The notes under the pieces are model-generated. The model was not told the origin of the DNA. It made no database searches and worked only from the letters and a program-made list of their open reading frames with translations. A program made the translations under genes and the position numbers. Below are positions 1,425 to 42,345 of a stretch of 64,000 nucleotides of DNA, one piece after another (position 1 is the first letter of the stretch; each line of letters starts with the position of its first letter). The stretch is from an uncultured Chloroflexota bacterium (GTDB taxonomy: Bacteria > Chloroflexota > UBA11872 > VXNJ01), in NCBI GenBank assembly GCA_964496475.1, contig CAZBZS010000009.1:64-64063 (forward strand), written 5' to 3'.

Positions 1425-4001
1425 TTGCGGTGGAGGACCGCCGGAACACGGAGGATTGGGTGCGAGCGGGAGATCGAGGGTGACGGGACACTGGCAGGAC
1501 CGAATCCGGCCGTCCGGTTTAAGGCGGCGTCGCTGATGCGGGCCGCACGCGGGCGGGCGGTGGCTTTCCATCTGCTGATGATGGCGCTGTTCGGCGCGGC
1601 GACGGTCGTGTCGCTGCGGCCGTTGCTGGTGAATGCGGCGGACGGGGTGGCGATTAAACCAGCAGGCGATCAGCTGTGGCAGGTCTCGTTGCTGGAAGGT
1701 CAGCTTCGCGCTCTGCTGAAGGAGCCAAGCACATTCTTTCAAGGCTATTTCTACTACGGGATGGGCGACGCCCTATACGGCTCCGATTTGTTGCTGGCGC
1801 TACTCCTGATCTTCGCGCCGTTGCGGCTGGCGCTGGGGAACGCCGACCTAGCTTTCAACCTCACGTGGCACATCGCCTTCTGGCTGAACGCCGTCCTGAT
1901 GTACGTCGCGGTGCTGGCGCTGACCCGCAATCGGTGGGCGGCGCTGTTGGCGGGGGCGGTGTTCGGATTCGGGTCGATTCAGATCAACTATGCACAGTCG
2001 CATTTTCAGTATGCCGGCTCGTGGTGGATTCCGCTGGCTCTGCTCTTCAGCGTGCGATTCGAGCGGACGAAGAGCTGGAAGGATTTCACCGCCGCCGTGT
2101 TGTGCGTGTGGCTCCAATTCGTGACCGTGCCGATGCTCGCGTACATTGCGGGATTCGTGGTGCTGACGTTTGCTGTGATTCCCGGGCTCTGGTGGTCGGC
2201 GCGGAACCGGAACTGGCGAGTTCCCCTGCGCATGCTCGTCGCGACGACGGTGGTGACGGCAGCGTTCTTGCCGGTGGTAATCGGCTACTTTGAATTTTCC
2301 GGCGACTGGAACGCCCAGCGGGATATCACCGAGGTCCAGAGTGGATCGCTGCAATTGCAGGATTACCTCTCGCCGTCTTCCCGGCTGTACTGGTACGAGG
2401 GGATGCAGGAGCGCTTTCCGGTGCCGACAGGGGAGCGTCGGGCTTTCCCGGGATTAGTGCCGCTGGCGGTAGGGCTGCTGGGCTTGGTTCTGGGTGGAAT
2501 GGCGCTGGTGCGGAGGGAGCGATTCGGTTGGTACGCGGTCGGGGCGCTGACGCTGGTGATCGGGTCGGTGGCGCTCACGCTTGGACCGGCCTGGAAGGTG
2601 AACGAGACGGTGACGGATATCGAGTTGCCGTACCTGTTCTTGTTCGAGAATTTCTCCATGTTCAGGGCGGTGCGGGTGGTTGCCAGATTCGCCGTGCTGG
2701 GGAACGTGGCGCTGGCGTTGCTGGCGGGGATCGCGGTGGCGATGGTGGGGCGGCGCTTTCCCTGCCGTCCACGGATGGCCGGGCTGCTGGGGGTCGGACT
2801 TGCGGCGGCGGTGCTGGTGGAGTCGTTCACCGCTCCGCTGAACGTGAACCCGGCGCCGGAGGACGTGGACCTGGAAAGGCTACTGGCCAGCGCCCGGCCG
2901 GGTCCGACGCTGTTCGTGCCCGTGAGCGGCGCCGAGGAGGTGCGCAGGCTCTGGTTCGTGACCAAGGCGGAGAGCGGTCCGCTGGTGAACGGCTACTCCG
3001 GTTTCATCTGGCCGCAGTACTGGTACTTCCGTGATGCCGCGGCGGGGGTGACAGTGGCAAACGTCTCTGGACTGGCCCGGGGTCTCGCGGCGTACGGGGT
3101 GCGAAACGTGGTCCTAGAGCGACCGAAGCTGGTTCCGGAACAGATCGCCGCATGGGAAACGTTGGGGGCGGACCCGGCGGTGGAAGCGGTGACGCAGGAG
3201 GGAGCGTGGACGCATATGCGACTGGCCCCGGCGAGCGGACCGGCGGAGCAGGCGTGGAGCGAGTTGGAGGCGGTGATGTTGCTGAAGGCGGCGCCGGCGG
3301 ACGCCGGCTTGCTGACCTGGTTGACGTTGTCGAACAATCGTGCGGAGCCGTGGATGCCGCGGAATGGGTCGCACGTTCGGCGCACGCTGGTGAAGTGGAG
3401 AAACGGAGACGGGAGTTTGGTACTGGAGTTCGAGACCGATTTGCTGCCACCGCCGTTCCTGGTCGGGGAGAATTCGCACAGTCTGATTGTGCATCTGTTC
3501 ACACCGGCGGAAACGGGTCGTTATGAGGTGACGATGGAGGCCGACGGGGAGACAATTGTGCACCAGGTGGTGGACGTGGGAGACTCGCCGCCGGCGTCAT
3601 TCGATGGAACGGTGGTGGGGCTCGCGGCCAGGTTGACCAGGATGTCGGCACGATCGTTCGAGGGCAGGCCGGGAGAGAAATTCGTATTGCAGGTGGACGC
3701 GCTGAACACCGGGTCGATGGCCTGGGAAGGGGTGGCGAACATCAGGCTGGGATGGCGCTGGTACCGGGTGCTGCCCGACGGCGATGAGATCGAGATGCCG
3801 CAATACGAGGGGAGAATCCCGCTGGTGGGTCACCTGACCGGCGAAGTCTGGCCAGGGAACGGCTACTCGTTCCGGGGACTGGTGACGACGCCGCCGGAGC
3901 CGGGGACGTTCAAGCTGCGGGTGTCGATGGTGGCTGAGATGGTGGGATGGCTCGATGCGCCGCCAGTGGTGGTGGAGGTGGTGCTGAAACGGGAGGAGTA
4001 A
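1425..4001 (+). CDS. large polytopic membrane protein (N-terminal ~12 TM, C-terminal ~400-aa beta-rich soluble domain), putative GT-C-type or YfhO-like extracytoplasmic glycosyltransferase; paralog A
   Basis: 858-aa ORF with many hydrophobic helices. A long collinear similarity to the 4396..6951 protein includes FFxGxxxxGxGDALYxSDLL and AVxxFGxIQINYA. Alignment with the paralog suggests the start is the ATG at 1536. Confidence 0.75.
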   Translation: MRWRTAGTRRIGCEREIEGDGTLAGPNPAVRFKAASLMRAARGRAVAFHLLMMALFGAATVVSLRPLLVNAADGVAIKPAGDQLWQVSLLEGQLRALLKEPSTFFQGYFYYGMGDALYGSDLLLALLLIFAPLRLALGNADLAFNLTWHIAFWLNAVLMYVAVLALTRNRWAALLAGAVFGFGSIQINYAQSHFQYAGSWWIPLALLFSVRFERTKSWKDFTAAVLCVWLQFVTVPMLAYIAGFVVLTFAVIPGLWWSARNRNWRVPLRMLVATTVVTAAFLPVVIGYFEFSGDWNAQRDITEVQSGSLQLQDYLSPSSRLYWYEGMQERFPVPTGERRAFPGLVPLAVGLLGLVLGGMALVRRERFGWYAVGALTLVIGSVALTLGPAWKVNETVTDIELPYLFLFENFSMFRAVRVVARFAVLGNVALALLAGIAVAMVGRRFPCRPRMAGLLGVGLAAAVLVESFTAPLNVNPAPEDVDLERLLASARPGPTLFVPVSGAEEVRRLWFVTKAESGPLVNGYSGFIWPQYWYFRDAAAGVTVANVSGLARGLAAYGVRNVVLERPKLVPEQIAAWETLGADPAVEAVTQEGAWTHMRLAPASGPAEQAWSELEAVMLLKAAPADAGLLTWLTLSNNRAEPWMPRNGSHVRRTLVKWRNGDGSLVLEFETDLLPPPFLVGENSHSLIVHLFTPAETGRYEVTMEADGETIVHQVVDVGDSPPASFDGTVVGLAARLTRMSARSFEGRPGEKFVLQVDALNTGSMAWEGVANIRLGWRWYRVLPDGDEIEMPQYEGRIPLVGHLTGEVWPGNGYSFRGLVTTPPEPGTFKLRVSMVAEMVGWLDAPPVVVEVVLKREE

Positions 4002-4395
4002 GGGATCTGTCGGGTCGGCTTCGGTATGCCCCTCAATGCCGGTCGACAATCGAACCACCCTGGGCAAGTTTCCGTGACTCGCACCACCCGGTACGTTGCC
4101 CGGGGGCGGTCCTCCAGCGTCCTCTAGGGCACCGGGTTGAGTACCCGGGAACCAAGCAAGATCAACTCCAAAGCCGCGGGAAGGCCGGCCGTTCGGATGA
4201 CTTCGAGAACTGCCTGACAGTGCGCCATCAAGACAGGGAGTGGGGGCGGCCGAAGTCTGACCGCGCGATGACGAAGGGTCCTGGCCATGTGACCCGAACG
4301 CGAAGTATGGACCAATGCTCGCTCCGGCCTCGGCGCGGGCGCGTACATAGCCGCTCGCCGTAGGGGGCGCGGGAGGTTTATGGCCGATACCGTGG

Positions 4396-6951
4396 CTATG
4401 GACCGGCGCGAGTCTCGTTTGGGCCAAGGACAGTGACCGGAATCTCAATGAGCTCCCCGGGAAACCAGGCGACAAGCTCGGCCAGCATCCCGACTCTCAT
4501 GACGTAATCTCCGGGCATTCCGGGGACCGATACAGTCCCGGAAAACGGATGGCCCGACCCCACCTCCACTACGCCGAAGACATGATTCAGTAGGGGGAGC
4601 CGGCCTTCCGGCACGGGACCCGGCTGGAAGGTTCCGTCCGACTGCCGCTCAAACCACTGCCAGCCCAGGCGGATGTTCGCGTCGCCGATCCAATCCACCA
4701 AGCCTGTGTTCACGGCGTCGATATGGAGCGGAATCTGTTCGCCAGGACTCGCTTCGATGTTGGCCGGCGTGCGGAGTATCAGTCTGGCGCCCAGTCCCTC
4801 GGCAGATCTCCTGAAAGGCTCCCGGATTGCATGGCCCACCTTCACTGTCCGTTCCAGAATTTTCTCGCCATCCACGGAGATCATGAGTTCGTACTCACCG
4901 GCGTCGGCAGGCGAGGCGAGTTGAATTGGAATCCCTTGCAGCTGGCCCGGTTCGAGAAACGGCGGTGGCGACCAGCCGCCGGTTGAACGGGCGACGACCG
5001 CGTTCCGTGAGTCGATCCACTTCACGTTCAAGGTGCGGGCGTGGGATCCTCCGGGAGGGATCCAGGGTTTCTCGTCCCTAGTGGCCAATACCAACGCGCC
5101 GACGATTTCGTGACCGGGTTCCACCGAGTCGACCAGAAGCCGGACGTCGAGGTCGGCCCAGCCAAATTCCGCGGGCGGAGTAAGTTCCCGCAGCGTAACC
5201 ACCACGTAGTCGCCTGCCTCACGATGAGTGTCAACCGTCGCACTGCCAGTGAAGGCGTCCCACATTGCAACATCCTCCGAAGGGATCGATGGGGTTCGGA
5301 GTACAACGTGACGGATTCCATACGCTTGCAGGGCGACCGCCAGATCGGCGGCATCGCGGACCGATCGACCCACGGTGGTTCTCTGGAATTGCTCGGTCTT
5401 GGCCCAGATGTAACCCGAATAACCGTTTACCAGTGGACCGACACCCGTCTGGGCGGCCAGCCACATGCGCTCGATTTCAGCCTCGGCGCCGTATCGCCAG
5501 TCAACGTCCTTACGCAGAACCGGTATGAACAAGGCTGGCCCGGGCCCGGCCTCACGCAGAGCCTCGGTAAGCAGCGGACGCTCTGTCATGCGATGAACAG
5601 GCAATTGCGTGGGGACGGCCTCCCCGAGTACCAGGATCGTGGCTAGAAGTCCCGCGACCGGCACCGGAAAGCGCGCCGACCAGCGGTGCCCAGCGGCCCA
5701 GGCCACCGCCGTCGCCGTCAGCAGGGCCAGACCAACGTGGACGAGAAGGGAGAACCGAGCGACAACGCGAATGGCGCGGAACATTGAGACATTCTCGAAC
5801 AGGATCGAGTAAGGCAGTCTTACGGATGTCACCGTGTCATCCCATTTCCAGTGGGTGCCAAGCGAGAAGATCAATCCGAGGATTAACAGCCCGGCGGCTG
5901 TTAGGGCCAGCGTGCTATGCCGCCCCCCGGCCACCCCGCCGCCACGGAGGCCGACGAAGAGACCGACGGCGCCAAGTCCCGCCGGAACGAATCCGGGGAA
6001 GACCGTACGTTCAAAGTAGGGCATTGGAAATGCCGCGGCCAATTTCCCGTACCAGCGTAGGCGGGATGTCGGCGAAAAGTAGTCCTGCAACTCAACCGAC
6101 CAGAACTGCACATCGCCCACGGTTCGCTGGGCCTGCCAGAGAGCCGCATAGTGCTGGTAGCCAAGAACCAGTGGCATGAAAAGTAGTGAAACCAAGCTTG
6201 CGACGATGCCGAGGACCACCAGCGCCCGCCAATTCCGACGCCACATGATGCGGGTAACCACCGCGGGACCGGCGAATACCAGTACCGCCAGACCGGCCAT
6301 GATGCCGAGGTGGACGCCGGTGGCGAATTGAATCCCGGTCAGCAAGAGGGCCAGTCCGATATCCCACGGACTCAAGGTCCGGGAGAATCGGACCGCGAAG
6401 ACGATCGCTAGCGGTAGCCACCAGGCGGCCAGAAATTGCAGGTGAAAGGCGTAGTTGATCTGAATGGCGCCGAAGGCGTACACCGCGCCGGCGGCGAGGG
6501 CGCCGGCACGCGAGCGAGTCAGAACGGACCCGGCCCAGTACATGCTCAACGCGTTCAGGACAAACGCTAGGAGATAGGCGAGGTTGAAGGCCAGAAGTGC
6601 ATGCCCAGTTGCCCATCGCAGCGGTGCGAAGAGGGCGAGTAAGCCGAGCAGGAGATCGGAAGAATAGAGGGCGTCCCCCGAGCCAAAAAAGATATTGCCG
6701 GAGAAGAATTGGCCCGGGCGCGACAGGAGTGACGATGTCTCGAACTCGAGCAGGCTCAGTTGATAAAGCTGATCGTGAAACGGCTCGTACGGAAGGTGAT
6801 CGGCAAGCCCGGTGGCAAGTGGATAGGTGAACAGGACCGCCGCTGTGGAAAAGATGCTGAATACCGCCGTCCCCCAACGCCAACCGGGGAACGTTCGAGA
6901 GAATACGCGGCCGGCTCCTAGCACCGTTCTTTCAGCTGCCTTCAATTCCAT
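4396..6951 (-). CDS. large polytopic membrane protein, putative GT-C-type or YfhO-like glycosyltransferase; paralog B (convergent with paralog A)
   Basis: 851-aa ORF that is a paralog of 1425..4001, with the same TM block and a C-terminal beta-rich domain ending …LAELVAWFPGELIEIPV. It is convergent with paralog A. Confidence 0.75.
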   Translation of the reverse strand: MELKAAERTVLGAGRVFSRTFPGWRWGTAVFSIFSTAAVLFTYPLATGLADHLPYEPFHDQLYQLSLLEFETSSLLSRPGQFFSGNIFFGSGDALYSSDLLLGLLALFAPLRWATGHALLAFNLAYLLAFVLNALSMYWAGSVLTRSRAGALAAGAVYAFGAIQINYAFHLQFLAAWWLPLAIVFAVRFSRTLSPWDIGLALLLTGIQFATGVHLGIMAGLAVLVFAGPAVVTRIMWRRNWRALVVLGIVASLVSLLFMPLVLGYQHYAALWQAQRTVGDVQFWSVELQDYFSPTSRLRWYGKLAAAFPMPYFERTVFPGFVPAGLGAVGLFVGLRGGGVAGGRHSTLALTAAGLLILGLIFSLGTHWKWDDTVTSVRLPYSILFENVSMFRAIRVVARFSLLVHVGLALLTATAVAWAAGHRWSARFPVPVAGLLATILVLGEAVPTQLPVHRMTERPLLTEALREAGPGPALFIPVLRKDVDWRYGAEAEIERMWLAAQTGVGPLVNGYSGYIWAKTEQFQRTTVGRSVRDAADLAVALQAYGIRHVVLRTPSIPSEDVAMWDAFTGSATVDTHREAGDYVVVTLRELTPPAEFGWADLDVRLLVDSVEPGHEIVGALVLATRDEKPWIPPGGSHARTLNVKWIDSRNAVVARSTGGWSPPPFLEPGQLQGIPIQLASPADAGEYELMISVDGEKILERTVKVGHAIREPFRRSAEGLGARLILRTPANIEASPGEQIPLHIDAVNTGLVDWIGDANIRLGWQWFERQSDGTFQPGPVPEGRLPLLNHVFGVVEVGSGHPFSGTVSVPGMPGDYVMRVGMLAELVAWFPGELIEIPVTVLGPNETRAGP

Positions 6952-7321: not shown

Positions 7322-8467
7322 ATGCGAATCGCACTCATCTATGACGCCGTCTATCCCTACGTAAAAGGTGGGGCCGAGCGGCGCTACCTCGAAATCGCCC
7401 GCCGGCTGTCAACCCGGCATGAGGTCACCCTAGTAAGTTTTGGCTGGTGGAAGGACACTCCCCCGGCCGACGCCGGCCCAAATCTCAGGTACCTTTCAGT
7501 GGGCACGCCACGGACGCTATACGGGAAGGATGGCACGCGCGCGGCGAGCGAGGCCGTGCTGTTCGGCGCCGCCGTCGTGCCGACCCTCCTGCGGGAACGC
7601 TTCGACATCGTCGATTGCTGTTCATTCCCGTACTTCTCCGTCCTCTCAGCCCGTATGGTAACCGCCGGACGCCAGCTCCCCTTCGTCGTGACCTGGCACG
7701 AGCACTGGGGGCCGTACTGGCGCGAGTACTGGGGCTGGAAGGGCGCGCTCGGCCGCCTGGTAGAGCAGGCCGCCGTGATAGCCTCACCGTTATCCATTTC
7801 GGTTTCGGAATTCACGCGAAAGCGGCTCCTCGCCGGTATGTTCGGACGGTCTCCCCAGAGCGTCGTGACCATCCCCAACGGCATCGATTTCGATGTGATT
7901 GCCGCTACTAGAAAAGGTTCTGATCCAGTTGACCTTGTCTACGTTGGGCGCCTCATGCGGCACAAGCGCGTGGAATTGCTAATCGAGGCAATCGGGTTAC
8001 TGCGAGATCAAGGCCGCCATGTCCGTTGCCGTCTCGTCGGTGACGGGCCCGAGCGCGAACGGCTGATCGACCTGACCAACCGCCTCGGTGTGTCCCCGCT
8101 GATCGAATTCACCGGCTTCGTACCCGAATTGCAGGTCTACGAAATAATGAAATCCGCCCGCGCTCTCGTGCTCACGTCCGAGAGAGAGGGCTTTGGCAAC
8201 GTCGTGCTAGAAGCCAATTGTTGCGGTATCCCTGCTATCGTCGCCCGCGGACCCGAGAGCGCGAGTCCCGAACTAGTGAGTGAAAACGTCACCGGCCAGA
8301 CCTGCATCTTGTCGGCCGTGGCGGTCGCCGATTCCATAGCCGACGTCCTTGATGCCTCCGGCCGTTTTCGGAAGGATGATTGCATCGCCCACGCCCAGAG
8401 GTTTGAATGGACGAAGGTGAGCGACCGTGTCCTTGACGTATACGAGTCCGTTCTTGCCCAACGCTGA
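7322..8467 (+). CDS. glycosyltransferase family 4 (GT-B, retaining)
   Basis: The N-terminus is MRIALIYDAVYPYVKGGAERRY and the C-terminal domain carries EGFGNVVLEANCCGIPAIV, the GT4 E-x7-E region. Confidence 0.85.
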   Translation: MRIALIYDAVYPYVKGGAERRYLEIARRLSTRHEVTLVSFGWWKDTPPADAGPNLRYLSVGTPRTLYGKDGTRAASEAVLFGAAVVPTLLRERFDIVDCCSFPYFSVLSARMVTAGRQLPFVVTWHEHWGPYWREYWGWKGALGRLVEQAAVIASPLSISVSEFTRKRLLAGMFGRSPQSVVTIPNGIDFDVIAATRKGSDPVDLVYVGRLMRHKRVELLIEAIGLLRDQGRHVRCRLVGDGPERERLIDLTNRLGVSPLIEFTGFVPELQVYEIMKSARALVLTSEREGFGNVVLEANCCGIPAIVARGPESASPELVSENVTGQTCILSAVAVADSIADVLDASGRFRKDDCIAHAQRFEWTKVSDRVLDVYESVLAQR

Positions 8468-8520: not shown

Positions 8521-9309
8521 TTGTTCACCGGTGAGCGACTGGATCCCCGGTTGGCCACCGGCACGCAGATCTACCATCTGCACCGCTCCCGGTACCGCTT
8601 TGCGGCCGGGCTCGCTACATCAAAGCGGGTGCTGGACGTTGCCTGCGGGACAGGTTACGGGTCCGCCGAAATGGCGTCCTCCGCGCGGAGTCTCACCGCG
8701 GTTGACCTGTCGCCGGCGGCTCTACGCGACGCCGCGGCGACCTACAACTCAGCGAGGGCAAACTTCGCCGCCATGAACGCCCTCGATCTTGCCCTCACCA
8801 CCGCGTCATTCAATCTTGTGGTGGCCTTCGAGATGATCGAGCACATGGCCGATCCGGACCGCTGCTTGCAAGAGATTCATAGAGTGCTCGAGCCGGGCGG
8901 AACACTCATCATTTCGGCCCCGAATCGCGCCGTGCACAGTCCCGACCGCCAGAGCCCTTTGCACCGCTGGCACTACTTTGAACCGACCGTCGACGAATTC
9001 CGTCGGCTTCTGACCGAAGGTGGATTCACCGTCGACCGACTGCTCGGGCAGCACGCAAACAGCCGAATCGGCACCACGCTGGCGGAATCGAAACGCAACT
9101 CGCTCGTCGTGGCAGCCGTGCGGATCGGCCAGTTCACGCTGCCAAAGCTACCGCCGTTCTTGCAGCGATTGACCCTGCGCACAATCCGGAGCCGGCGGTT
9201 TCTGTGGCGACTGCTACCCTCATACCAGCCGGCGGACGAACGCGACGTCTTCTTCAGCCTCGATTCGCCCGAACTCGCTATGAATCTGGTAGCCGTATGC
9301 TCGCGATGA
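8521..9309 (+). CDS. class I SAM-dependent methyltransferase
   Basis: Carries the VLDVACGTGYGS motif I and an acidic motif II. A TTG start follows a GGAG ribosome binding site. Confidence 0.8.
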   Translation: MFTGERLDPRLATGTQIYHLHRSRYRFAAGLATSKRVLDVACGTGYGSAEMASSARSLTAVDLSPAALRDAAATYNSARANFAAMNALDLALTTASFNLVVAFEMIEHMADPDRCLQEIHRVLEPGGTLIISAPNRAVHSPDRQSPLHRWHYFEPTVDEFRRLLTEGGFTVDRLLGQHANSRIGTTLAESKRNSLVVAAVRIGQFTLPKLPPFLQRLTLRTIRSRRFLWRLLPSYQPADERDVFFSLDSPELAMNLVAVCSR

Positions 9310-9361: not shown

Positions 9362-10486
9362 GTGACATCCGGTCCGCTGATCTCCGTCGTGTTGCCATGC
9401 CTGGACGAGGCGGAGACTGTCGGGCCGACCGTGCTGCGGGCCCTCGAGGGAATCCGGCGCACCGGCCGGAGCGGTGAGGTTGTGGTAGTGGACAACGGTT
9501 CGGTCGATCGGTCAGCCGAAATGGCCACCACCAATGGCGCTCGCGTCGTTGCCGAGTCGAGGCCCGGGTACGGAGCCGCACTGCTGCGCGGATTTGCCGA
9601 AGCGCACGGCGAGATACTGGTGATGGCCGACGCCGATGACACCTATGAATTGGACAACTTACCCGCCCTGATTGACCGCCTCGACGACGGCGCCGATCTG
9701 GCGATCGCCAATAGATACTCCGACATGCCGCACGACGCAATGCCATGGCTCCATCGGAACATTGGGACCCCGACGATAAACTGGCTTCTGCGGCGCGCAT
9801 ACGGCGTTCAAGTCGGCGATAGCCAGAGCGGTTACCGGGCGTTCACCCGCGACTGTCTTCAACGCCTGGATCTGCGGTCCTCCGGGATGGAGCTCGCCTC
9901 CGAAATGCTGGCCAAAGCCGCCATCAAGGGCATGCGGGTCGACGAGGTCCCGTCGACCTATCTGGTGCGCAGAGGCGAAAGCAAACTCCGCACCTTCCGC
10001 GACGGGTGGCGGCATCTGCGTTTGATCCTCACGCTTACCCCAACCATCCTCTACATCGTCCCCGGAGTGATTCTGTCGCTGCTGGGGGTGGTGACTTTCG
10101 CCCTGGCGTTTTCGGTTTCAAGCGGCCTCGATGTCGGCGGACTGACTTGGCAGCCCGTCTTCGCGGGTCCCATCTTCGTGATCGTCGGATTTAACGCCAC
10201 CGCTATGGGAATTGCCGTGCGCGGGCTACATATCCGGCGGGGTCTGCGGCAGACCTCCGGGATCGATCGGTGGAGCAGATTCTTGGGGTTAGAGACCGTC
10301 TTGGTTGGGGCCGCGCTGGCTATTCTCGCCGGAATCGCCATCGACATCTTCATCTTTACCCGTTGGGTCGGCGACGCCGCGCCCCTTCTCGCCGGCCCCC
10401 AGTTGGCCGCTACGGCACAAACCTTGATTGTGGTGGGCACGAACGCCGGGCTCGTCGGCTTTCTGACCGCTTCGTTCAAAACCTAG
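9362..10486 (+). CDS. GT2 polyprenol-phosphate sugar synthase (DPM1/GtrB/CsbB-like) with C-terminal 4-TM anchor
   Basis: N-terminal ISVVLPCLDEAETV…VVVVDNGSVDRS with a DAD motif marks a GT-A fold. The C-terminal ~140 aa are hydrophobic, as in GtrB-like enzymes. Confidence 0.8.
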   Translation: MTSGPLISVVLPCLDEAETVGPTVLRALEGIRRTGRSGEVVVVDNGSVDRSAEMATTNGARVVAESRPGYGAALLRGFAEAHGEILVMADADDTYELDNLPALIDRLDDGADLAIANRYSDMPHDAMPWLHRNIGTPTINWLLRRAYGVQVGDSQSGYRAFTRDCLQRLDLRSSGMELASEMLAKAAIKGMRVDEVPSTYLVRRGESKLRTFRDGWRHLRLILTLTPTILYIVPGVILSLLGVVTFALAFSVSSGLDVGGLTWQPVFAGPIFVIVGFNATAMGIAVRGLHIRRGLRQTSGIDRWSRFLGLETVLVGAALAILAGIAIDIFIFTRWVGDAAPLLAGPQLAATAQTLIVVGTNAGLVGFLTASFKT

Positions 10487-10519: not shown

Positions 10520-12751
10520 GTGCATAAGCCCGGCCGACCGACCGGAACTGCCCGGCGCCCGGGTCCCGGGCGCCCGATAATAGTCCTAGCAACCGTCGCC
10601 AACCTGCTGCTGGCGGCCCTCGTGGCGATGGTTCTCGTCGGCGGCCCGATTATATCCTTCAACATCACCAAGACCGCCAGTCTCGCTGGTTTGCTCCTGC
10701 CAGCGTCATACCTGCTGCTAGCGAAGGTTGCCCCCGGCGACCGGTGGCCACTACTGCAGCGACTGACCGTTACGAGCCTGCCCTTCCTTGCCGTGGTCGT
10801 CGCCGCCTACTGGAGTGAGCGGCTCAGCCACCAACTGGTGGCAACCGGTGATTGGGGCTGGCTGGTTCTGACCGCGTATGCCGCGATCCAGGTCGGCTTG
10901 ATCGCCCTGTCCGCCGGCATCCCCCGTGTTACCGAGGCCGCGCTCGGCGGCCTCTCCGGTATCGGCGGCGCTGTCATCATCCACGTTGCCGCCTTTCCGT
11001 CCCCGCTCCCTCCCTTCTGGGCTCTGGTCGGGTTGGTTGCCGGCGCCACTCTCGCCGTTTTCATGACCCGGCTGCCCCCGCGGCCCACCCGCCGGACCCA
11101 GTACTCGATTCCCTACCGTGTTCTGCCTCTCTCGCTCGCCTGGATCGGCGCGTCTGTAGTCGCATTTCCCGGATCCCCGCGGCACGAGCTTGCCTCGTCC
11201 GCCAGCGTTCAGGTTCTGGCCGTAGTGCTCACCCTGTCCGCCACCGGGGTTGTCGGACTGCTGTGGCATTCCGAGCGTCGCGGCATAGATGGATTGTTCG
11301 CCGCGACGGTGATCCCCCTCAAAGCGATTGGCCCGGTTGTGGTCACCGCAAGTTTGCTTGCCCTGGGTGCACTGCAGGCTGCATCGTATTCGGCCGTGAC
11401 CGCCGATGATCTCGGACGTTACTGGTCCGTGGCCGATAGCTTGCGGTTCTTCGGCACCTACCCAGTGTGGGACGTTGGGTTATTCGCCTGGATGGATCTC
11501 CCAATCTTGCCGCTGCTCATGGCTGCTTCGTTCCAGCTGCTCGGTCACAGTTACGCCTCGGCCCTCGCCCCAATAGCAGTAGCAAACCTCTTCTTGCCGC
11601 TGCTGATTTATGGCGCTTCACTGGCTTGGGGTGCCGGTCAGCGCGTGGCCTTCGCCGTTGCCGTGTTGGTGGTCGTAGCTCCGCCAATCCAGATTTATAG
11701 TCTTGGGTCGGCTGAGCCGGACGCAGTCTTCATCACGATGCTGGCCGGCTCGATGTGGTTGTTGGGAACTGGCATCCGGTCTCCACGCCGCATTCACTGG
11801 GGTCTGGCACTGAGTCTGGCTATCGGAGCATTGGTGCTGAGCCGCCCCGAGGGCATGCTGTACGGCGCCAGTGTCGCCGGCGTAGTTATTCTTGTGGACC
11901 GACGTCGGTGGTCGTTGTCGGTTCTGGCGGTCGCCTTCATCCTTGTGGCTCCCTTTGTACTGCTCAGCCTAGACCAGGTCGGACGGCCGTGGCCCACGAA
12001 TCGACAGGAGCTCGCCGTATCCAACCTAGCCAGTAACCTAAGCCTCGTGGCGGAGGTCACGTGGGAGAAACTTGCCCGGGTCGTTCTTCTCAATGACATC
12101 CGCTTTCCGATACTGGTCGGAGCGGCTCTTGCCGCGTTCGCTGTCGGTGCAGTAGTTCACATCCGCCGGTGCCGGTGGGTAGCACTTCTTCCGATCGCAG
12201 TCGGCGTAAACGTGATGGTCTCCCTCAGTGTGCCGGCTGACACTGTTCGGACAGATGAATTGGACGAATTCGTCCGTCATTTCGCCTACCCGATACCTGT
12301 GTTCGCCGTTTTTGTGGCAACCGGGTTGACGGAAGTCGGGCGGTTGCTTTCCACTATCTCTCGGGGGAATAGGCTATTACCCTTCGTCGGTCCTGCGTTT
12401 GCTGCGTGGCTTGTCGCCGGCAGCCTTTACCTCCTGGCAACACCGGAGGAATTCCATCATGGAGCTCGCAGCGGAAGCCTCCTCACGGCAGACATCTACG
12501 TGAACGCTCCGGAACTCTGGGGCCATAACTTGGAGCTACCGTGTCCGCCGTGTAGAGGCGAAGCCTGGAATTTTGAGGCGTTCAGGCACGGGTTGTTCGA
12601 CAACTATCGTCCCTTCGATGTTCACTCAGGATCCGACGGTGCTGCATATCAGACCCTATCTGGGGTCGCTGTGGCACTCGGATTCCTTGCTCTCCTGTCG
12701 TCTCAGTTCCGGTCGCTGCCATCACGCCGACCAACCACCGGCAACAGGTGA
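10520..12751 (+). CDS. GT-C glycosyltransferase of ArnT/PMT_2 type with ~290-aa N-terminal membrane extension
   Basis: 743 aa with more than 15 TM segments. The first-loop acidic motif …TADDLGRYWSVADSL matches ArnT DExRYAExxRxM but sits near residue 290 instead of about 40. The gene immediately follows the GT2 gene. Confidence 0.65.
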   Translation: MHKPGRPTGTARRPGPGRPIIVLATVANLLLAALVAMVLVGGPIISFNITKTASLAGLLLPASYLLLAKVAPGDRWPLLQRLTVTSLPFLAVVVAAYWSERLSHQLVATGDWGWLVLTAYAAIQVGLIALSAGIPRVTEAALGGLSGIGGAVIIHVAAFPSPLPPFWALVGLVAGATLAVFMTRLPPRPTRRTQYSIPYRVLPLSLAWIGASVVAFPGSPRHELASSASVQVLAVVLTLSATGVVGLLWHSERRGIDGLFAATVIPLKAIGPVVVTASLLALGALQAASYSAVTADDLGRYWSVADSLRFFGTYPVWDVGLFAWMDLPILPLLMAASFQLLGHSYASALAPIAVANLFLPLLIYGASLAWGAGQRVAFAVAVLVVVAPPIQIYSLGSAEPDAVFITMLAGSMWLLGTGIRSPRRIHWGLALSLAIGALVLSRPEGMLYGASVAGVVILVDRRRWSLSVLAVAFILVAPFVLLSLDQVGRPWPTNRQELAVSNLASNLSLVAEVTWEKLARVVLLNDIRFPILVGAALAAFAVGAVVHIRRCRWVALLPIAVGVNVMVSLSVPADTVRTDELDEFVRHFAYPIPVFAVFVATGLTEVGRLLSTISRGNRLLPFVGPAFAAWLVAGSLYLLATPEEFHHGARSGSLLTADIYVNAPELWGHNLELPCPPCRGEAWNFEAFRHGLFDNYRPFDVHSGSDGAAYQTLSGVAVALGFLALLSSQFRSLPSRRPTTGNR

Positions 12752-13018
12752 GAGCGGGTCGGTCGACGGTGAACGAACCGCGCCGACCGTCGGTTTCGGA
12801 TTGAATTGACAGGTCGAACGCTGGCTTGACGAGCCCGATCGGGAGTTAGTATCGCAGCCTCATCAACGGACACTGGTATCGACGGATCCGGAGCGGCGGC
12901 TCCCAATCTGCTCAGAACGTGCGGGCGCATAGTCTTTCCTGAGCGGAGCGGGGTCCCAACAGTCGTCGGAAACACGAAGTCGTTGACCTTCCAACGGGAC
13001 CCCGCCATCAGATGCGCT

Positions 13019-13204
13019 TCACGCACGTGGACACACTGGTTTTGCACGACCTCGAGGGCAACTGCTGGCGCCGGCATCACACGTCTGCTCTTTGGGGGTC
13101 TGTAGCCAGGGTTGGTCTGCAATGCCGAGGGCGTCGCCGCGTTGTTGATCGGTGGTGATGAACAGAATGTTCGGATAGTCGTTAGGTATGGTGTTCTGGC
13201 GCAC
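13019..13204 (-). pseudogene. sulfatase N-terminal remnant (truncated, frame lost after ~45 aa)
   Basis: The translation …PNILFITTDQQRGDALG… is a sulfatase N-terminal strand and metal-site motif. The ORF collapses after 61 aa and no downstream continuation exists in any frame. Confidence 0.55.
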
Positions 13205-13299
13205 AATCGGTAGGCGCTATTCTTACTTGATCGTACAGATCTAGCGAGTTCTGAATGTTCGCGATCGACTTTCCTCTTCATCGATCTCACTAACCGATA

Positions 13300-14664
13300 G
13301 TGCCACCCAACTTCCTTTTTCTCATTGCCGATGACCATCGGCACAATGCGATTGGTTCGTTGGGAACGCCTGCAGTTGCGACGCCAAATCTTGACGCGCT
13401 GGCAGCTGCGGGTACAGCGTTGACCCATACATACATCATGGGTTCGACCTCGGCGGCTGTTTGCATGCCGAGTCGGGCCATGCTGCTGACCGGACGAAGT
13501 CTGTTTCGGGTTTTCGGACCCAATCCGGGTAACGTTTCGCCATACCCGATGGATCCAGAGATACGAACGTTTCCGGAGCTTCTGCGAATGGCGGGTTATC
13601 GAACATACGGCGTGGGCAAGTGGCATAACGAACCTGGGCTGTATGCACGGAGTTTTGACGATGGCGGGAGCATTTTCTTCGGTGGTATGTCCGAGCACGC
13701 GGCGGTTCCGGTTCACACCTTCCATCCGCGAGGCATGTATCCGTTGGATGCAGCGACTCCCGGACGTGTTTTCTCATCCGAGCTGTTTGTAGATAGCGCG
13801 GCCGAGTTGCTCCGTACACATCCTGCCGAACGTCCATTTTGTATGTATGTGGCGTTTACGGCTCCCCATGATCCGCGCACGCCTCCACCGGAATTTGTGC
13901 GCAAGTATCCAGTGTCAGACATTGAGTTACCGCCCAATTTTGTCCCCACGCATCCGTTTGACAACGGGGAGTTGGGTGGACGTGATGAGCAGCTGGCGGC
14001 CCATCCTCGTGATCCTGACGAGGTGCGTCGTCATATTGCTGCCTATTACGGAATGGTCAGTCATCTCGATGCACAGATTGGCCGTTTGCTCGACGAGCTC
14101 GAGGCGACCGGTTACGCGAATGACACCATCGTCGTTTATACGGCCGACCATGGGTTGGCTCTTGGACAACACGGCTTGCTCGGGAAGCAGAATCTGTATG
14201 ACCACAGTCTGCGGGTTCCGCTCATCATCCGTGGCCCGGATGTGCCCCGGGACGAACGACGCGATGGCCTCTGCTATCTGATGGATGTGTTTCCGACAAT
14301 CCTTGACCTGGCCGGGCTGGAGCTGCCTGAGGAGTGCGAAGGCTTGAGCCTCTTACCGATGATCCAGGGGGCAGATCTGGATGTCCGCGAGTCCATCTTT
14401 GCGGCGTTCCAGAGGGATCAGGAACTCGGGGTTGAAGATTCCTTTCAGCGGGCCGTTCGCCAGGGCGACTGGAAGCTGATTGATACCCGGGCGGCAGGAG
14501 AGCAGCACAATCAGCTCTTCAATCTTGGGTCGGATCCGTGGGAGATGCGGAATCTGACAACTCAGGCAGATCAGGCTGAGCGGCTGGACGAGATGCGCAG
14601 ACTGATGATGCACTGGCGTGCTGTTGTTGGAGACACGCTGTCGGACGAATGGACGGTCCGATAG
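13300..14664 (+). CDS. sulfatase (formylglycine-dependent, C-x-P-x-R type), no signal peptide
   Basis: A GTG start is followed by PNFLFLIADDHRHN and then CMPSRAMLLTGR, the CxPxR formylglycine motif. An in-frame stop 2 codons upstream excludes any leader peptide. Confidence 0.85.
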   Translation: MPPNFLFLIADDHRHNAIGSLGTPAVATPNLDALAAAGTALTHTYIMGSTSAAVCMPSRAMLLTGRSLFRVFGPNPGNVSPYPMDPEIRTFPELLRMAGYRTYGVGKWHNEPGLYARSFDDGGSIFFGGMSEHAAVPVHTFHPRGMYPLDAATPGRVFSSELFVDSAAELLRTHPAERPFCMYVAFTAPHDPRTPPPEFVRKYPVSDIELPPNFVPTHPFDNGELGGRDEQLAAHPRDPDEVRRHIAAYYGMVSHLDAQIGRLLDELEATGYANDTIVVYTADHGLALGQHGLLGKQNLYDHSLRVPLIIRGPDVPRDERRDGLCYLMDVFPTILDLAGLELPEECEGLSLLPMIQGADLDVRESIFAAFQRDQELGVEDSFQRAVRQGDWKLIDTRAAGEQHNQLFNLGSDPWEMRNLTTQADQAERLDEMRRLMMHWRAVVGDTLSDEWTVR

Positions 14665-15041: not shown

Positions 15042-15854
15042 TTGCCTGAATCCGGCGTCCCCCGCGACGAACAATCCATCCCGGCGAGTCCTTTCGCGCG
15101 TCTGAATCACTTTCTGGCAGTTGCCTACCAGGTCCTGTCCACAAATCCGCGCCTGCTGCTCTTTCTGGGCCTGAACGCGGCGGTCAACATTGTCATCCTG
15201 TGGGCCTTCCTGGGCACTGTGGTGGACGACCCTGGCGGCGAACCGACCGCCGGCGACCCCGGGCTTCTGCTCGATTTCATCCGCTCGGCGGCACAGAATC
15301 TCCCTCTCCACTTCTTTCAGTTCGCACTTTTGGTCGCCGCCCTCGCGGCGGTTCGGGGTGAGACCATGACCGCCGGGGACGCCTTCCGCGTAGCCCGCGC
15401 GCGCATCGTGCCTGTCGTTATTCTTGCCCTCCTCACCACCACATTCGGCCTAGCCACGCAGCTCGTGACCGAATCTTTGGTCGAACGTGAAGCCGGTATC
15501 GTCAGCCTTCCCATTGTCCTGGCCTGGTTCAGCTGGTTCGCCATCGACCTCCTAGCCCTGTCCCTGGTGGCCGACACGAGCGGCAGCATGATGGCCTACC
15601 TGGCGGGCGCCGGCCGGCTGGCCCGGCGAGTCTGGGGTGACGTTCTCATCCTGGTCTTCGTTTTCATGCTCACGACCAGCTTCCTGGCCCCGCTTCTGAT
15701 TGGCGGCGTCGCGTCCGGCGCCGTGGGCGCGGAACCCTCCAGGCAGGCGGTGCTGGTCATCGCATCTATATCGACCATCGTCCACAACATCATTTTGTCT
15801 TTTATCTACATTTACGGCGCCCGGCTGTACATCTACGCGGTCACGGCTCGCTAG
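15042..15854 (+). CDS. hypothetical polytopic membrane protein
   Basis: TTG start with a GGACGGAG ribosome binding site. About 7 hydrophobic helices are present and no known motif was recognised. Confidence 0.55.
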   Translation: MPESGVPRDEQSIPASPFARLNHFLAVAYQVLSTNPRLLLFLGLNAAVNIVILWAFLGTVVDDPGGEPTAGDPGLLLDFIRSAAQNLPLHFFQFALLVAALAAVRGETMTAGDAFRVARARIVPVVILALLTTTFGLATQLVTESLVEREAGIVSLPIVLAWFSWFAIDLLALSLVADTSGSMMAYLAGAGRLARRVWGDVLILVFVFMLTTSFLAPLLIGGVASGAVGAEPSRQAVLVIASISTIVHNIILSFIYIYGARLYIYAVTAR

Positions 15855-15934: not shown

Positions 15935-16789
15935 GTGTTCGCAACTATTGGCCGGACCTGGGACATCATGAAGATCTGCTGGGGGGTGTTGCAAAAAGAC
16001 CGTGAGCTGCTGGTCTTTCCGCTGGTCTCCGGCGTGGCCATGCTGGTCCTGGCGGCGATCACGTTCGCGGCGACGTCCTCCAGCGGCGCGCTGCAGCGGA
16101 TCGAGGGCGCGGCGGGCAGCCAGTCGGCCAGCGCCCTGCAGGCAGGAGACATCGCCCTCCTGGCTACCATCTACTTCGTGGGCGCGTTCATCGTCATCTA
16201 CTTCAATTCGGCTCTGATAGGGGCGGCGATGATCCGAATTCGGGGCGGCGATCCCTCGGTGTGGGATGGCTTCGCGATAGCCAATTCACGTCTGCCGCAG
16301 ATCATCGGCTGGGCGATAATTTCCGCTTCGGTGGGCCTCATCCTTCGGATACTGCGCAACCAGGCCAGGAACAATATCGTAGGCCAGATCGCCCTGGCCA
16401 TCGCCGGCGGCGTCTGGGCTTACATGACGTTCATGGTCGTGCCGATTCTGATTATTGAGGGTGTGGGTCCGATCAAGGCGATCAAGCGTTCCGGAAGCCT
16501 ATTCAAGCGCACCTGGGGCGAACAAGTCGTCTCCAATTTCGGCTTCGGAATTATCAGCTTCCTGGCCATCGTGGTGGCGGCGATACCGGCGGTGTTGGTA
16601 GGTATGGTCTCGCCGGTGGCCGGAATCGTGCTGGGTGTGATGACCGTCGGAACAGCCGTGGTCACCGTCGCCGCCCTCGAGGGCATCTTCAAAGCGGCCC
16701 TCTACGAATACGTGGCCGAGGATGTGGTGGCGGAGGACTTCTCCTCCGACCTGCTGGGCGGGGCCTTCGTCCCGAAGGGCAGCCACTAG
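15935..16789 (+). CDS. uncharacterised polytopic membrane protein, tandem paralog 1
   Basis: A GTG start follows a GGAG ribosome binding site. Motifs IRIRGGDP, ANSRLPQIIGWAI and RTWGEQ are shared with the next gene. Confidence 0.7.
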   Translation: MFATIGRTWDIMKICWGVLQKDRELLVFPLVSGVAMLVLAAITFAATSSSGALQRIEGAAGSQSASALQAGDIALLATIYFVGAFIVIYFNSALIGAAMIRIRGGDPSVWDGFAIANSRLPQIIGWAIISASVGLILRILRNQARNNIVGQIALAIAGGVWAYMTFMVVPILIIEGVGPIKAIKRSGSLFKRTWGEQVVSNFGFGIISFLAIVVAAIPAVLVGMVSPVAGIVLGVMTVGTAVVTVAALEGIFKAALYEYVAEDVVAEDFSSDLLGGAFVPKGSH

Positions 16790-39618: not shown

Positions 39619-41124
39619 CTAGTACGCGCCGTCGCCACGAATCACGGCGGGGATGGTGCGCAGAATGATCTTGATATCGAGCCCCAAGGACCAGTGCCCG
39701 ACGTAGTAGGTGTCGAGCATGACCATCTCCTCGAAGGAGAGGGTGCTACGTCCGCTGACCTGCCAGAGCCCGGTGAGACCGGGCAGGACGCGCAGGCGGG
39801 TGTGCGCCCAGTCGTCGTACTGGGCGACCTCGTCAGGGACCTGGGCCCGCGGCCCGACCATACTCATATGCCCCATAATCACGTTGATGAACTGGGGCAC
39901 TTCGTCGAGGCTGGTGCGGCGCAGCAACCGTCCCACCTGGGTCCGGCGGGGGTCGTCCTTTCGCTTGAACAACGGCTCGGAGGAGGAGCCGGGATACAGA
40001 TCCTCCATCATCTTTTCCGCCCCGAGCACCATGGAGCGGAACTTGTGGAGCCGGAACTGACGCCCGTTGCGGCCGACGCGCACCTGCTGGAAAAGGATGG
40101 GTCCGCGGCTATCGAGTTTTATGGCGATGATGACCAGCAGCAGAAGCGGCGACAGCAGAGTCAAAAGGAGAGAGGCCATAACGGTGTCGAGCGCCCGTTT
40201 CTGCACATAGTTGAAACCGGAGATTTCGTTGGTGCTGAGAGTAAAGAGCGGGATGCCGCCGATTTCCTCCGTGTGCAGCCGCCCGGCCTGCACATCGGCC
40301 AAGTCGGGCACGATGGTGCACCGAATTCCGTTGGACCGGCAGGCGGCTACGGCGTCGCTGACGGCCAGGGCGGAAGAGGGCGGTAAGGCGACGACGGCCC
40401 GATCGGCGCCGTTTTCCCGTAGGGCGGCAGCGACACCGTCGGGCCCGGCCAATCGCCGGAACCTGCCGAAGTCTTCGTTATCATCCATCTCGTGATCCAC
40501 GAAACCAACGAGCAGCAAACCTGAAGCGGGGGCCGCCGCCAACTGCTGCATCAACATCTTGGCCATGTTGCCGCGCCCGACCACCACGACACGCTCCACA
40601 TCCCGTCCACGCTTGAACCGGGCGATGCGCAGCGAGCGCAGGGCATATCGCCAGAAGGCGATCAGCCCAAAGCCGGCTAGGAGGAGATATCCAAACATCA
40701 GGCGGGAGAAAAACGCAGGCCGAAAAAGAAAGAACACGATGATTACGGCGGCGGTCGCGAGCAGGGCGGCCATAGCCAGTTTCGGCACTTCGTCCAGCCA
40801 GCGGATGGACCGGCGGCTCGCGTAGGAGCCGTAGAAATGGAGCGCAAGAAGCATGACCGCGACAAAAGTCACTCCGACCGGCCAATATTCGTCCAGCGGA
40901 GTGAACTGAAATTCGGTCAGGTCCGGTCCGAGGCGGAGCTCATACCGGAGCCAGTGCGCCAGAAAAAAGGCTCCGGTAATCGCGACAATATCGCCCAGCA
41001 AGGTCACGAGTTGCCAGCGGACGCGACCGCCGGCCCGCCCTTGCGGCGAATCCGGAGCCGGGCCGGCAGCGGGCGATGCCGTCTTCAAGAAGGTTCCGAA
41101 GCCAGCTGGTAGGCGTCGCGGCAT
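39619..41124 (-). CDS. polyprenyl glycosylphosphotransferase (WbaP/CpsE-type initiating sugar transferase)
   Basis: An N-terminal TM block is followed by the C-terminal motif …PLFKRKDDPRRTQVGRLLRRTSLDEVPQFINVIMGHMSMVGPR. Confidence 0.85.
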   Translation of the reverse strand: MPRRLPAGFGTFLKTASPAAGPAPDSPQGRAGGRVRWQLVTLLGDIVAITGAFFLAHWLRYELRLGPDLTEFQFTPLDEYWPVGVTFVAVMLLALHFYGSYASRRSIRWLDEVPKLAMAALLATAAVIIVFFLFRPAFFSRLMFGYLLLAGFGLIAFWRYALRSLRIARFKRGRDVERVVVVGRGNMAKMLMQQLAAAPASGLLLVGFVDHEMDDNEDFGRFRRLAGPDGVAAALRENGADRAVVALPPSSALAVSDAVAACRSNGIRCTIVPDLADVQAGRLHTEEIGGIPLFTLSTNEISGFNYVQKRALDTVMASLLLTLLSPLLLLVIIAIKLDSRGPILFQQVRVGRNGRQFRLHKFRSMVLGAEKMMEDLYPGSSSEPLFKRKDDPRRTQVGRLLRRTSLDEVPQFINVIMGHMSMVGPRAQVPDEVAQYDDWAHTRLRVLPGLTGLWQVSGRSTLSFEEMVMLDTYYVGHWSLGLDIKIILRTIPAVIRGDGAY

Positions 41125-42221
41125 TTATCAGCCGCCACATCCCAGGAAAATCGGGTGGCGCGCAAGAGCCCGGCATCGCGCAAAGAGTCGCATTGCTCGC
41201 CGGACCCGGTAAGTTCTATCAAGACGGAGGCGAGCTCGTCCGGATCGCCGGGGGTGGTCAGGAGGCCGGCGTGGCCAACCACCTCTGGCAAAGACGAAGA
41301 CGTGGTGGTGACGACGGGAGTACCGCAGGCCATCGCTTCGAGTACCGGCAAACCAAACCCCTCGTAGGCGGAGGGATATACGAAAACCTGTGCGGAATTG
41401 TACCAAAGGGGTTGTTCTTCACGGGGTACGTAGCCGGCGAAATGGATGACTCCGGCGAGACCCTCGGCCTCGATGGCGGCTTCGATGGCGGAGTATCCCC
41501 AGCCCCTGCCGCCAGCCAGCACCAGCTCGCCCAGGTAACCGGAGCGCCGCAGGTTGCCGAAGGCCCGCACCAGGACGTCTACGTTCTTGCGCGGTTCAAG
41601 GGTGCCCAGGTAGAGCAGGTAATGGCCTGGAAGACCTTTCTTGCCACGGAATTCCTCGACCAGCTCGCGATCGAGCGGACGCATGTCGGGGTCGGCGGCG
41701 GCGTAAACGACGCGTATTTTGGACGGATCCACGTGGAAATGCTCGACAATGTCACGACGGGTCGCTCGGGAGTCGGCGAGGATCACGCGAGCGCGGCGAG
41801 CGGAGAGACGGCTCATGGCGTTCAGGTATAGCCGTCGGCGCCAGGGATGCGCGGACGGCTGGACGACGTAGGACAGATCGTGAATGGTGAGCACGTGTCG
41901 CCCGGGCGCGAGGATGGGGGAGACGTTGAGGAAGGAGTGGGTTACGTCGAGACCGTCTCGCGCCGCCCACCACGGCATGGCTGTCTGTTCCCAGAGCACC
42001 CGCACGGCGGTTTGGGATGTGGGGAGGACCGATCGCCGAACTTGCATCCCGGCGGGCACGGGGAAAGGCAATTCACGCACGGAGTCGTTGACGTACAACA
42101 CAAACTGCAAGTCAGAATCACCGGTGAGCCGCTCGACGATGGCCGTCGTATAACGACTGACACCGGCGTTGCGAAACCCGGCGCCTGTGTACAAGACCTG
42201 GGCGTTGAGGCCTATGCGCAC
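41085..42221 (-). CDS. glycosyltransferase family 4
   Basis: Begins MRIGLNAQVL… and carries EGFGLPVLEAMACGTPVV. Confidence 0.8.
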   Translation of the reverse strand: MRIGLNAQVLYTGAGFRNAGVSRYTTAIVERLTGDSDLQFVLYVNDSVRELPFPVPAGMQVRRSVLPTSQTAVRVLWEQTAMPWWAARDGLDVTHSFLNVSPILAPGRHVLTIHDLSYVVQPSAHPWRRRLYLNAMSRLSARRARVILADSRATRRDIVEHFHVDPSKIRVVYAAADPDMRPLDRELVEEFRGKKGLPGHYLLYLGTLEPRKNVDVLVRAFGNLRRSGYLGELVLAGGRGWGYSAIEAAIEAEGLAGVIHFAGYVPREEQPLWYNSAQVFVYPSAYEGFGLPVLEAMACGTPVVTTTSSSLPEVVGHAGLLTTPGDPDELASVLIELTGSGEQCDSLRDAGLLRATRFSWDVAADKCRDAYQLASEPS

Positions 42222-42283
42222 CGCTCGGCTGCTCCGATTCCTTTCAGCTGTACCCGGCGAGGATATTCAACGCCCGGTGGGGC

Positions 42284-42320
42284 GGAAAGAGAACGGAGCC
42301 GGGGCGATTGCCCCGGCTCC
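42284..42320 (-). terminator. intrinsic terminator downstream of ABC ATPase gene
   Basis: A perfect 11-bp stem GGAGCCGGGGC-gatt-GCCCCGGCTCC is followed on the minus strand by GTTCTCTTTCC. Confidence 0.5.
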
Positions 42321-42345
42321 GTTAAAGTCCGGCTCCTGGTGGGAA

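Follow-up and report, generated by a model that had tools for sequence, protein, structure and literature searches.

Glycosyltransferases of the GT-C class typically contain 11-16 transmembrane (TM) helices (PMC12331936). In enzymes with the GT-C_A fold a conserved module, made up of TM1-7 and the juxtamembrane helices JM1 and JM2, forms the N-terminus of the protein, and a catalytically essential Asp is located at the JM1 tip in the first outward loop (PMC12041299). In AftB, a mycobacterial arabinofuranosyltransferase of this fold, this Asp belongs to a DD motif (PMC12041299). The protein O-mannosyltransferases (PMTs, GT39) contain a PMT (PF02366) and a PMT_4TMC (PF16192) module (PMC12331936), and eukaryotic PMTs carry a lumenal MIR domain. 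Extracytoplasmic glycosylation by three components involves a GtrB synthase, a flippase of the GtrA/SMR or MATE type and a GT-C enzyme (PMC11127046). Here we analyse a GT-C gene of an uncultured Chloroflexota bacterium. The window, i.e. the whole stretch of DNA analysed, comprises 64,000 nucleotides (nt) of contig CAZBZS010000009.1 (assembly GCA_964496475.1, positions 64 to 64,063), and the gene occupies its positions 10520-12751 on the + strand.

In this study, we show that this gene encodes a protein of 743 amino acids (aa) with about 20 TM helices. Its C-terminal part is predicted to adopt the GT-C_A fold. Its first 258 residues, referred to as the N-domain, form eight additional TM helices and have no detectable relative outside the family. 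With a probability of about 60% we read the protein as a polyprenyl-phosphate-sugar-dependent GT-C enzyme, which is fed by the adjacent family 2 glycosyltransferase (GT2) and whose family-specific N-domain extends the outer-leaflet site. This estimate includes the view that the N-domain belongs to the ancestral make-up of the enzyme, is obligatory and has co-evolved with it, and is not a recently fused transporter. In category the protein holds no surprise. As modelled, it would work like GT-C enzymes of the ArnT, AftB or Gtr type. The features of the gene, all on the + strand, are the following:

10520-12751, + strand: whole gene, 743 aa, predicted ~20-TM glycosyltransferase of the GT-C_A fold (open reading frame (ORF), homologs, AlphaFold2 (AF2) model, Foldseek)
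10520-10570, + strand: Arg/Pro-rich cytoplasmic head, residues 1-17, MHKPGRPTGTARRPGPG (sequence; mean column conservation 0.12)
10571-11113, + strand: TM1-6 of the N-domain, residues 18-198, Gly/Ala-rich and less conserved (AF2 models, identity)
11114-11293, + strand: TM7-8 of the N-domain, residues 199-258 (conservation equal to the catalytic core)
11168-11200, + strand: extracytoplasmic loop PGSPRHELASS, residues 217-227 (translation, conservation, topology)
11294-11386, + strand: helix 259-289, acting as TM1 of the GT-C conserved module (AF2 helix, invariant residues)
11294-12748, + strand: GT-C core, residues 259-743, 12 TM helices (alignment, AF2, topology)
11399-11443, + strand: TADDLGRYWSVADSL, residues 294-308, with the putative catalytic Asp pair D296/D297 at 11405-11410 (translation, conservation, AF2 helix)

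The full-length AF2 model, built from an alignment of 43 sequences (A1), reached a predicted local distance difference test score (pLDDT) of 82.6 and a predicted TM-score (pTM) of 0.80. In a Foldseek search of the Protein Data Bank (PDB) its 31 best matches were all GT-C enzymes. The best fold match was the ArnT/PMT_2 group, with ArnT of C. metallidurans (GT83; 5f15 and 5ezm, E 5.7e-5 and 7.3e-5) on top, and further matches included AftB, STT3, AglB, PglB, Pmt1/2/4, ALG12 and EmbB. The alignments span 415-500 columns, in keeping with the 485 residues of the C-terminal part; the tool does not report the aligned residues. Among alignments of more than 400 columns the lowest root-mean-square deviation belonged to AftB (9dlh/9dlf; 5.6-5.8 Å over 415-432 columns, TMt 0.43-0.44, identity 14-17%).

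The core starts with helix 259-289, which is joined to TM8 of the N-domain by a cytoplasmic linker of 5 residues and contains the invariant residues L279, G283, Q286, A287 and S289. After this helix, at the N-terminal tip of helix 295-311 and facing outward, lie D296 and D297, invariant in the 43 sequences. In the model, helices 295-311 and 329-341 precede the next TM helix and match JM1 and JM2 of the GT-C_A arrangement. The first outward loop (EL1) with these two JM helices is followed towards the C-terminus by a small outward domain (641-705) and a final TM helix. Conserved motifs on the outward side of the core are SAEPD (397-401), RPEG (442-445), GRPWP (488-492) and NDxRF (525-529). The GT-C_A conserved module thereby seems to be present as helices 259-486, starting at residue 259 and not at the N-terminus as in other GT-C_A enzymes. 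A preliminary description of the window had proposed an ArnT/PMT-like GT-C enzyme with a displaced catalytic DDxxRY loop. The displacement is borne out: compared with solved GT-C_A enzymes, the Asp loop comes ~258 residues, or eight TM helices, later. What does not stand is DDxxRY as the motif of the family, because R300 varies and position 301 is either F or Y. The family instead shows T-x-D-D-L-x-x-(F/Y)-W-x-x-A-(D/E), in which T294, D296, D297, L298 and A305 are conserved to at least 98% and all of them except T294 are invariant.

Weak matches in homologs point in the same direction as the fold search. Nine of the 43 homologs match PMT_2 (PF13231; E<=0.1) and seven match DUF2142, whereas the window protein itself stays below every Pfam threshold. 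Eight homologs were scanned individually for the positions of these matches. In the full-length proteins P0025 and P0036 (716-723 aa) PMT_2 extends from ~301-308 to ~441-460, just after the DD, and DUF2142 is found at ~348-512 (P0009, P0011, P0013). Relative to the PMT_2 gathering threshold of 26.1 bits, individually scanned homologs score above it (28.3, 30.1) and below it (24.8, 25.3). The label ArnT/PMT-like rests on the fold search and these PMT_2 matches, since the window protein has no Pfam match. On the modelled structure the protein is a GT-C_A-fold enzyme. Membership of ArnT/GT83, PMT/GT39 or Pfam PMT_2 cannot be demonstrated, and PDB sequence searches find no GT-C. Neither the window protein nor the 43 homologs match PF02366 or PF16192, and there is no large outward domain between TM helices.

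The comparison with solved enzymes can be summarized as follows. As in ArnT, the acidic pair opens the first outward loop after a TM helix and a polyprenyl-phosphate-sugar synthase of the ArnC/DPMS type is encoded alongside. Unlike ArnT, to which there is no sequence match at E<=10, the family has T-x-DDL-xx-(F/Y)W in place of DE-x-RY and carries the small outward domain before its final TM helix. The DD at the JM1 tip is shared with AftB, but AftB has 11 TM helices, an N-terminal conserved module and a periplasmic cap domain. Compared with GT-C enzymes in general the window protein reaches its ~20 TM helices owing to the eight extra N-terminal ones.

These data also bear on the possibility, already considered in the preliminary description, that the motif is mis-assigned. 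In that case the helices at the N-terminus would belong to the usual GT-C set, and the true catalytic loop would have to be sought in another part of the protein. The window protein lacks a direct Pfam or PDB sequence match and Foldseek gives no aligned-residue positions, which would allow for such an error. Nevertheless we consider it very improbable. The N-domain modelled alone has no GT-C match in the PDB, while the top matches of the full model are GT-C enzymes only. The PMT_2 matches of homologs begin ~5-10 residues past the DD, D296/D297 is the only invariant acidic pair after a TM helix on the outer side, and the order of JM1 and JM2 before the next TM helix is that of GT-C_A.

Hydropathy and AF2 secondary structure agree in placing eight TM helices before residue 258 (18-41, 51-69, 72-98, 112-132, 135-158, 165-184, 199-215 and 228-253), in line with the initially proposed Arg/Pro-rich head and about eight extra helices ahead of the motif. 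A topology of 20 TM helices with the N-terminus inside fits the positive-inside rule strongly: the inside loops contain 16 K/R and 2 D/E in 69 aa, the outside loops 15 K/R and 28 D/E in 233 aa. This topology puts the DD, all conserved loops and the 641-705 domain outside. Modelled alone, the N-domain is a confident independent helical bundle (pTM 0.79). The pTM of the whole chain (0.80) suggests that in the model N-domain and core form one rigid body.

Conservation divides the N-domain into two parts. Mean pairwise identity is 35% in TM1-6, 51% in TM7-8 and 47-54% in the core. In the TM7-8 region P203, A211, R221, H222, L224, S227 and Q231 are invariant. Most of these residues lie in or next to the loop between TM7 and TM8, P217-x-x-P220-R221-H222-E223-L224-x-x-S227 followed by Q231, with the family consensus PAAPRHELATS (PxxPRHELxxS). 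In this RHE loop R221, H222, L224 and S227 are invariant in the 43 sequences and E223 is conserved to 98%. By the positive-inside topology the loop faces outward, and it is the sole strongly conserved loop of the N-domain. Most other conserved residues of the domain are Gly, Ala or Pro and sit in the half of the helices towards the outer leaflet; among the small residues of TM1-6, G143 and G175 are invariant and G147 and G171 near-invariant. S99 and H104 (77% each) are located on the outer loop 99-111. The family alignment contains no conserved charged residue deep within any TM helix of the N-domain. The distance matrices of the N part (18-198) and the C part (259-743) are strongly correlated (Mantel r = 0.90, a value reached by 0 of 999 permutations), the N part diverging ~1.3 times faster.

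A purely structural function of the N-domain has to be considered at this point. It could hold the enzyme in oligomers, or link it to the TM domain of the GT2 or to other envelope machinery, and never touch the substrates. Small residues as abundant as in TM1-6 (G143, G147, G171, G175) are typical of helix-helix packing, TM1-6 evolve faster than the core, and in the closest orthologs a GT2 with TM helices is encoded next door. The invariant polar residues R221-H222-E223...S227-Q231, outward on the catalytic side, are however more than a docking surface needs, and paralogs without an adjacent GT2 retain the domain. We therefore regard such a docking or assembly role as unlikely.

The ORF 10520-12751 begins with a GTG codon, 33 nt past the stop codon of the upstream GT2. 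In the database the same gene is called as P0001 (707 aa), starting at M37 (10628); an exact look-up of P0001 gave no record. This call is probably too short, because M37 falls halfway through predicted TM1. P0002 keeps the residues that precede M37, and TM1 can be aligned throughout the family; GTG 10520 is therefore the better start. Even with the M37 start seven extra helices would remain. The head (residues 1-17) is common only to P0002, a homolog with 82% identity, and is otherwise unconserved in the family. Residues ~18-258 align in a single frame in 43 proteins and at ~30 genome loci. Judged from these alignments, the N-terminal extension is genuine and coding and not a start-codon artefact. 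Under-calling of starts is systematic in the family (P0001, P0042, P0099) and hides the N-domain in databases.

A first search yielded 52 homologs, mostly of ~650-770 aa, and homolog lengths range overall from about 650 to 780 aa. With a profile of the GT-C part only, 106 matches were obtained, all within the family at E<=1e-111, and this profile revealed no distant relatives devoid of the N-domain, as nothing was found between E 1e-111 and 1e-3. No intact member (>100 clusters) lacks the extension. Almost all of the clusters carry the label Chloroflexota; the label of one protein, P0048, is Actinobacteria. All 30 genome loci derive from metagenome-assembled genomes of Chloroflexota, often with two to three paralogs per genome, some of them in tandem. 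The family is multi-copy in marine and sponge-associated Chloroflexota.

Several members are short in the database (468-572 aa), which together with the M37 start of P0001 could suggest an annotation artefact, i.e. a real start near the motif or an N-terminal region that is a separate gene. Five short calls were examined as candidate members without an N-domain and all were rejected: contig ends truncate P0048 and P0075, the starts of P0042 and P0099 are mis-called (upstream of them the frame is open and homologous), and P0105 is frameshifted upstream. Two further loci are interrupted within the N-domain by single-base nonsense changes in an otherwise intact frame. At L007 (nt 6499-6501) an in-frame TAG replaces a conserved Trp (TGG to TAG) and at L014 (nt 6409-6411) an in-frame TGA replaces a conserved Gly (GGA to TGA). 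Sequencing errors or recent pseudogene formation could explain these stops, and nothing points to recoding. L029 is frameshifted. Since the frame is continuous and conserved at the protein level from residue ~18 in 43 homologs, the possibility of a start near the motif, which had been raised at the outset, fails, and we consider an artefact of this kind extremely improbable.

An N-domain profile (A2, residues 1-258) was scored with HMMER against 1.84 billion representative proteins. Only 18 proteins were found at E<=1e-3, 16 of which are family members or fragments. The other two are P0069, a low-complexity repeat rejected as a false positive, and P0070 (2191 aa), a weak match with E 2e-4. Of the 16, five short ones (P0059, P0060, P0062, P0063, P0065) that were inspected as apparent stand-alone N-domain genes have frameshift-type junk tails and were likewise discarded. 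No stand-alone or differently fused relative was found among the 1.84 billion proteins. The N-domain model has no fold match in the PDB, including GT-C, MOP, DMT, SMR and MFS folds (best E 0.9, TMq <=0.26), and neither the window protein nor the 43 homologs match GtrA or a transporter in Pfam. An origin by internal duplication of GT-C helices was rejected, too: hhalign gave a probability of 0.1% for N versus C and a non-significant 8.5% for N1 versus N2. The N-domain is an orphan in sequence and fold. A limited literature search found no paper describing a GT-C enzyme with an N-terminal TM extension.

Upstream of the gene, three further genes are located on the same strand:

7322-8467, + strand: GT4 glycosyltransferase (Pfam)
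8521-9309, + strand: class I S-adenosylmethionine (SAM) methyltransferase (Pfam)
9362-10486, + strand: GT2, 374 aa, putative polyprenyl-phosphate-sugar synthase and presumed donor supplier (Pfam Glycos_transf_2)

With gaps of 53, 52 and 33 nt, the order GT4-methyltransferase-GT2-GT-C is operon-like. In the GT2 a GT-A domain precedes the multi-TM part at the C-terminus. Its best PDB match is the dolichol-phosphate mannose synthase (DPMS) of Pyrococcus furiosus (5mlz, E 1.8e-19), the next is ArnC, and below the cut-off it matches the NCBIfam models AglJ, Dol-P-hexose transferase, PpgS and ArnC. Because of this closeness to DPMS and ArnC and the sub-threshold NCBIfam matches, we take it to be a polyprenyl-phosphate-sugar synthase. 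A GT2 is located directly upstream of the GT-C gene at seven loci (L001, L005, L006, L009, L026, L030, L032), and L001 repeats the complete gene order of the window. Elsewhere the paralogs L033 and L034 precede polysaccharide clusters of the order GT4-Bac_transf-GT4, a GT4 follows in L003, L027 and L028, and tandem pairs of family members occur in L010 and L011. Scans for promoters, terminators, Rfam families and tRNAs around the gene gave nothing relevant.

The locus thus resembles the three-component systems in its adjacent and syntenic GT2 synthase and GT-C enzyme. It differs from them in that a hydropathy scan found no flippase in the locus, that the GT2 belongs to the DPMS type and ends in a multi-TM region, and that the GT-C enzyme has an orphan N-domain. 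GtrA proteins have ~120 aa and four TM helices. The N-domain is like GtrA (PF04138) in context only, as a polytopic module together with a GtrB-like and GT-C pair; with 258 aa and eight TM helices it shows no Pfam or profile similarity to GtrA.

This context raises the question whether the N-domain is a built-in flippase, which would translocate the polyprenyl-phosphate-sugar made by the GT2 and hand it over to the fused GT-C part, replacing GtrA, SMR or MATE. The preliminary description had suggested a fusion of this sort, with a flippase-like or acceptor-binding module, and had proposed to search for flippase folds and for orthologs in which the region is a separate gene. By hydropathy there is no GtrA-like or other small multi-TM ORF near the window operon and, apart from the GT2, none within ~6 kb in the seven GT2/GT-C loci, although three-component systems normally include a flippase (PMC11127046). 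The N-domain moreover folds confidently on its own. Still, the absence of a flippase gene near the operon does not show that the N-domain flips lipids. Such genes are often encoded elsewhere or remain unidentified, many paralogs do not adjoin a GT2, and the GT2 has a C-terminal TM domain of its own. Positive evidence for flipping is lacking. The N-domain is unrelated in sequence to transporter and flippase families by Pfam and by the profile search and resembles no flippase fold of the MOP or DMT type. Its conserved positions are Gly, Ala and Pro or lie on the outer face, and the deep conserved charge that a polar conduit requires is missing. The idea of a fused module finds no support, as there is no split ortholog (every short or split case examined being an artefact), no stand-alone relative and no transporter match, TM7-8 equal the core in conservation, and N and C parts co-diverge. 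We consider a built-in flippase improbable, and likewise the variant in which the orphan domain is a translocase of new fold or a donor-channelling device fused to the GT-C enzyme.

We return to the preferred reading of a lipid-donor-dependent GT-C enzyme with an extended outer-leaflet site. The DPMS/ArnC-like GT2 would charge polyprenyl phosphate with a sugar at the cytoplasmic face. Supply of the donor by this enzyme is assumed because it is nearest to DPMS and ArnC and syntenic with the GT-C gene at seven other loci. The sugar-loaded lipid would then be translocated, and the GT-C enzyme would act on the outer face, where D296/D297 at the JM1 tip may be used in transferring the sugar to a glycan, a lipid or a protein of the cell surface. 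The last two helices of the N-domain and the RHE loop between them most likely pack on the core, where they would extend the outer-leaflet site that binds the lipid-phosphate donor or the acceptor. The more variable TM1-6 would represent a peripheral scaffold.

Several points weigh against this reading. The GT-C assignment rests on predicted structure and weak homolog matches. The Foldseek E-values are modest, with TM-scores of 0.3-0.44. The window protein has no Pfam match at E<=1 and only noise in NCBIfam, and neither phmmer nor hmmsearch with the 43-sequence profile finds a GT-C enzyme at E<=10 among PDB sequences. That the RHE loop lies close to D296/D297 and that the N-domain packs on the core is inferred, and the assignments of donor, acceptor and activity are putative. 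Finally, the flippase gene that was not found near the operon leaves room for a role in translocation.

Further observations concern the surroundings of the operon. Just upstream of it lie two divergent paralogs, 1425-4001 (+) and 4396-6951 (-), with 41% identity over ~815 aa. Each encodes ~810-850 aa, the N-terminal half being polytopic and the C-terminal half (~370 aa) soluble. They have no Pfam match at 1e-5, but a weak similarity to PTPS_related PF10131 (E 0.03-0.16), a family of the GT-C clan of Pfam. They may be additional lipid-donor glycosyltransferases that the same GT2 supplies. Downstream, a gap of ~550 nt (12752-13299) without Rfam or tRNA match separates the GT-C stop codon from a sulfatase gene (13300-14664, +). 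The gap falls where this part of the window is poorest in GC (0.575 for 12001-14000). At six other loci (L005, L014, L017, L018, L025, L030) family members likewise adjoin one to three sulfatase genes, which reflects either a recurrent association or merely the very high sulfatase density of these genomes. Downstream of the sulfatase two adjacent genes (15042-15854 and 15935-16789, +) encode polytopic proteins of the DUF6159 family (E 3e-8 and 2e-43). At 39619-43470 (-) genes for a MalK-like ABC ATPase, a GT4 and a Bac_transf protein follow one another. At L033 and L034, which share this neighbourhood, the ABC gene and the GT4 flank a paralog of the GT-C family; the window genome has no such paralog there, as the corresponding slot measures only ~125 nt. 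In L035 (nt 1690-4551) a family member is followed by a gene for a 953-aa protein with a weak DUF2298 match, apparently a large polytopic membrane protein.

The family departs from the GT-C pattern: it has ~20 helices, its conserved module is not N-terminal, and it carries a domain without a detectable relative among 1.84 billion proteins. TM7-8 and the RHE loop are as constrained as the active site, which makes this family a clean case for accessory TM domains that shape the choice of donor or acceptor. Should the N-domain be a flippase after all, the family would be relevant to the question how polyprenyl-phosphate monosaccharides cross membranes. If it were a translocase, a two-gene unit of GT2 and GT-C would do the work of three components and would open, for the first time, a sequence-based way to a flippase for lipid-linked monosaccharides that is not of the GtrA, SMR or MATE type. 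The window protein is not captured by the models of Pfam or NCBIfam, and the family bears on the envelope glycobiology of Chloroflexota.

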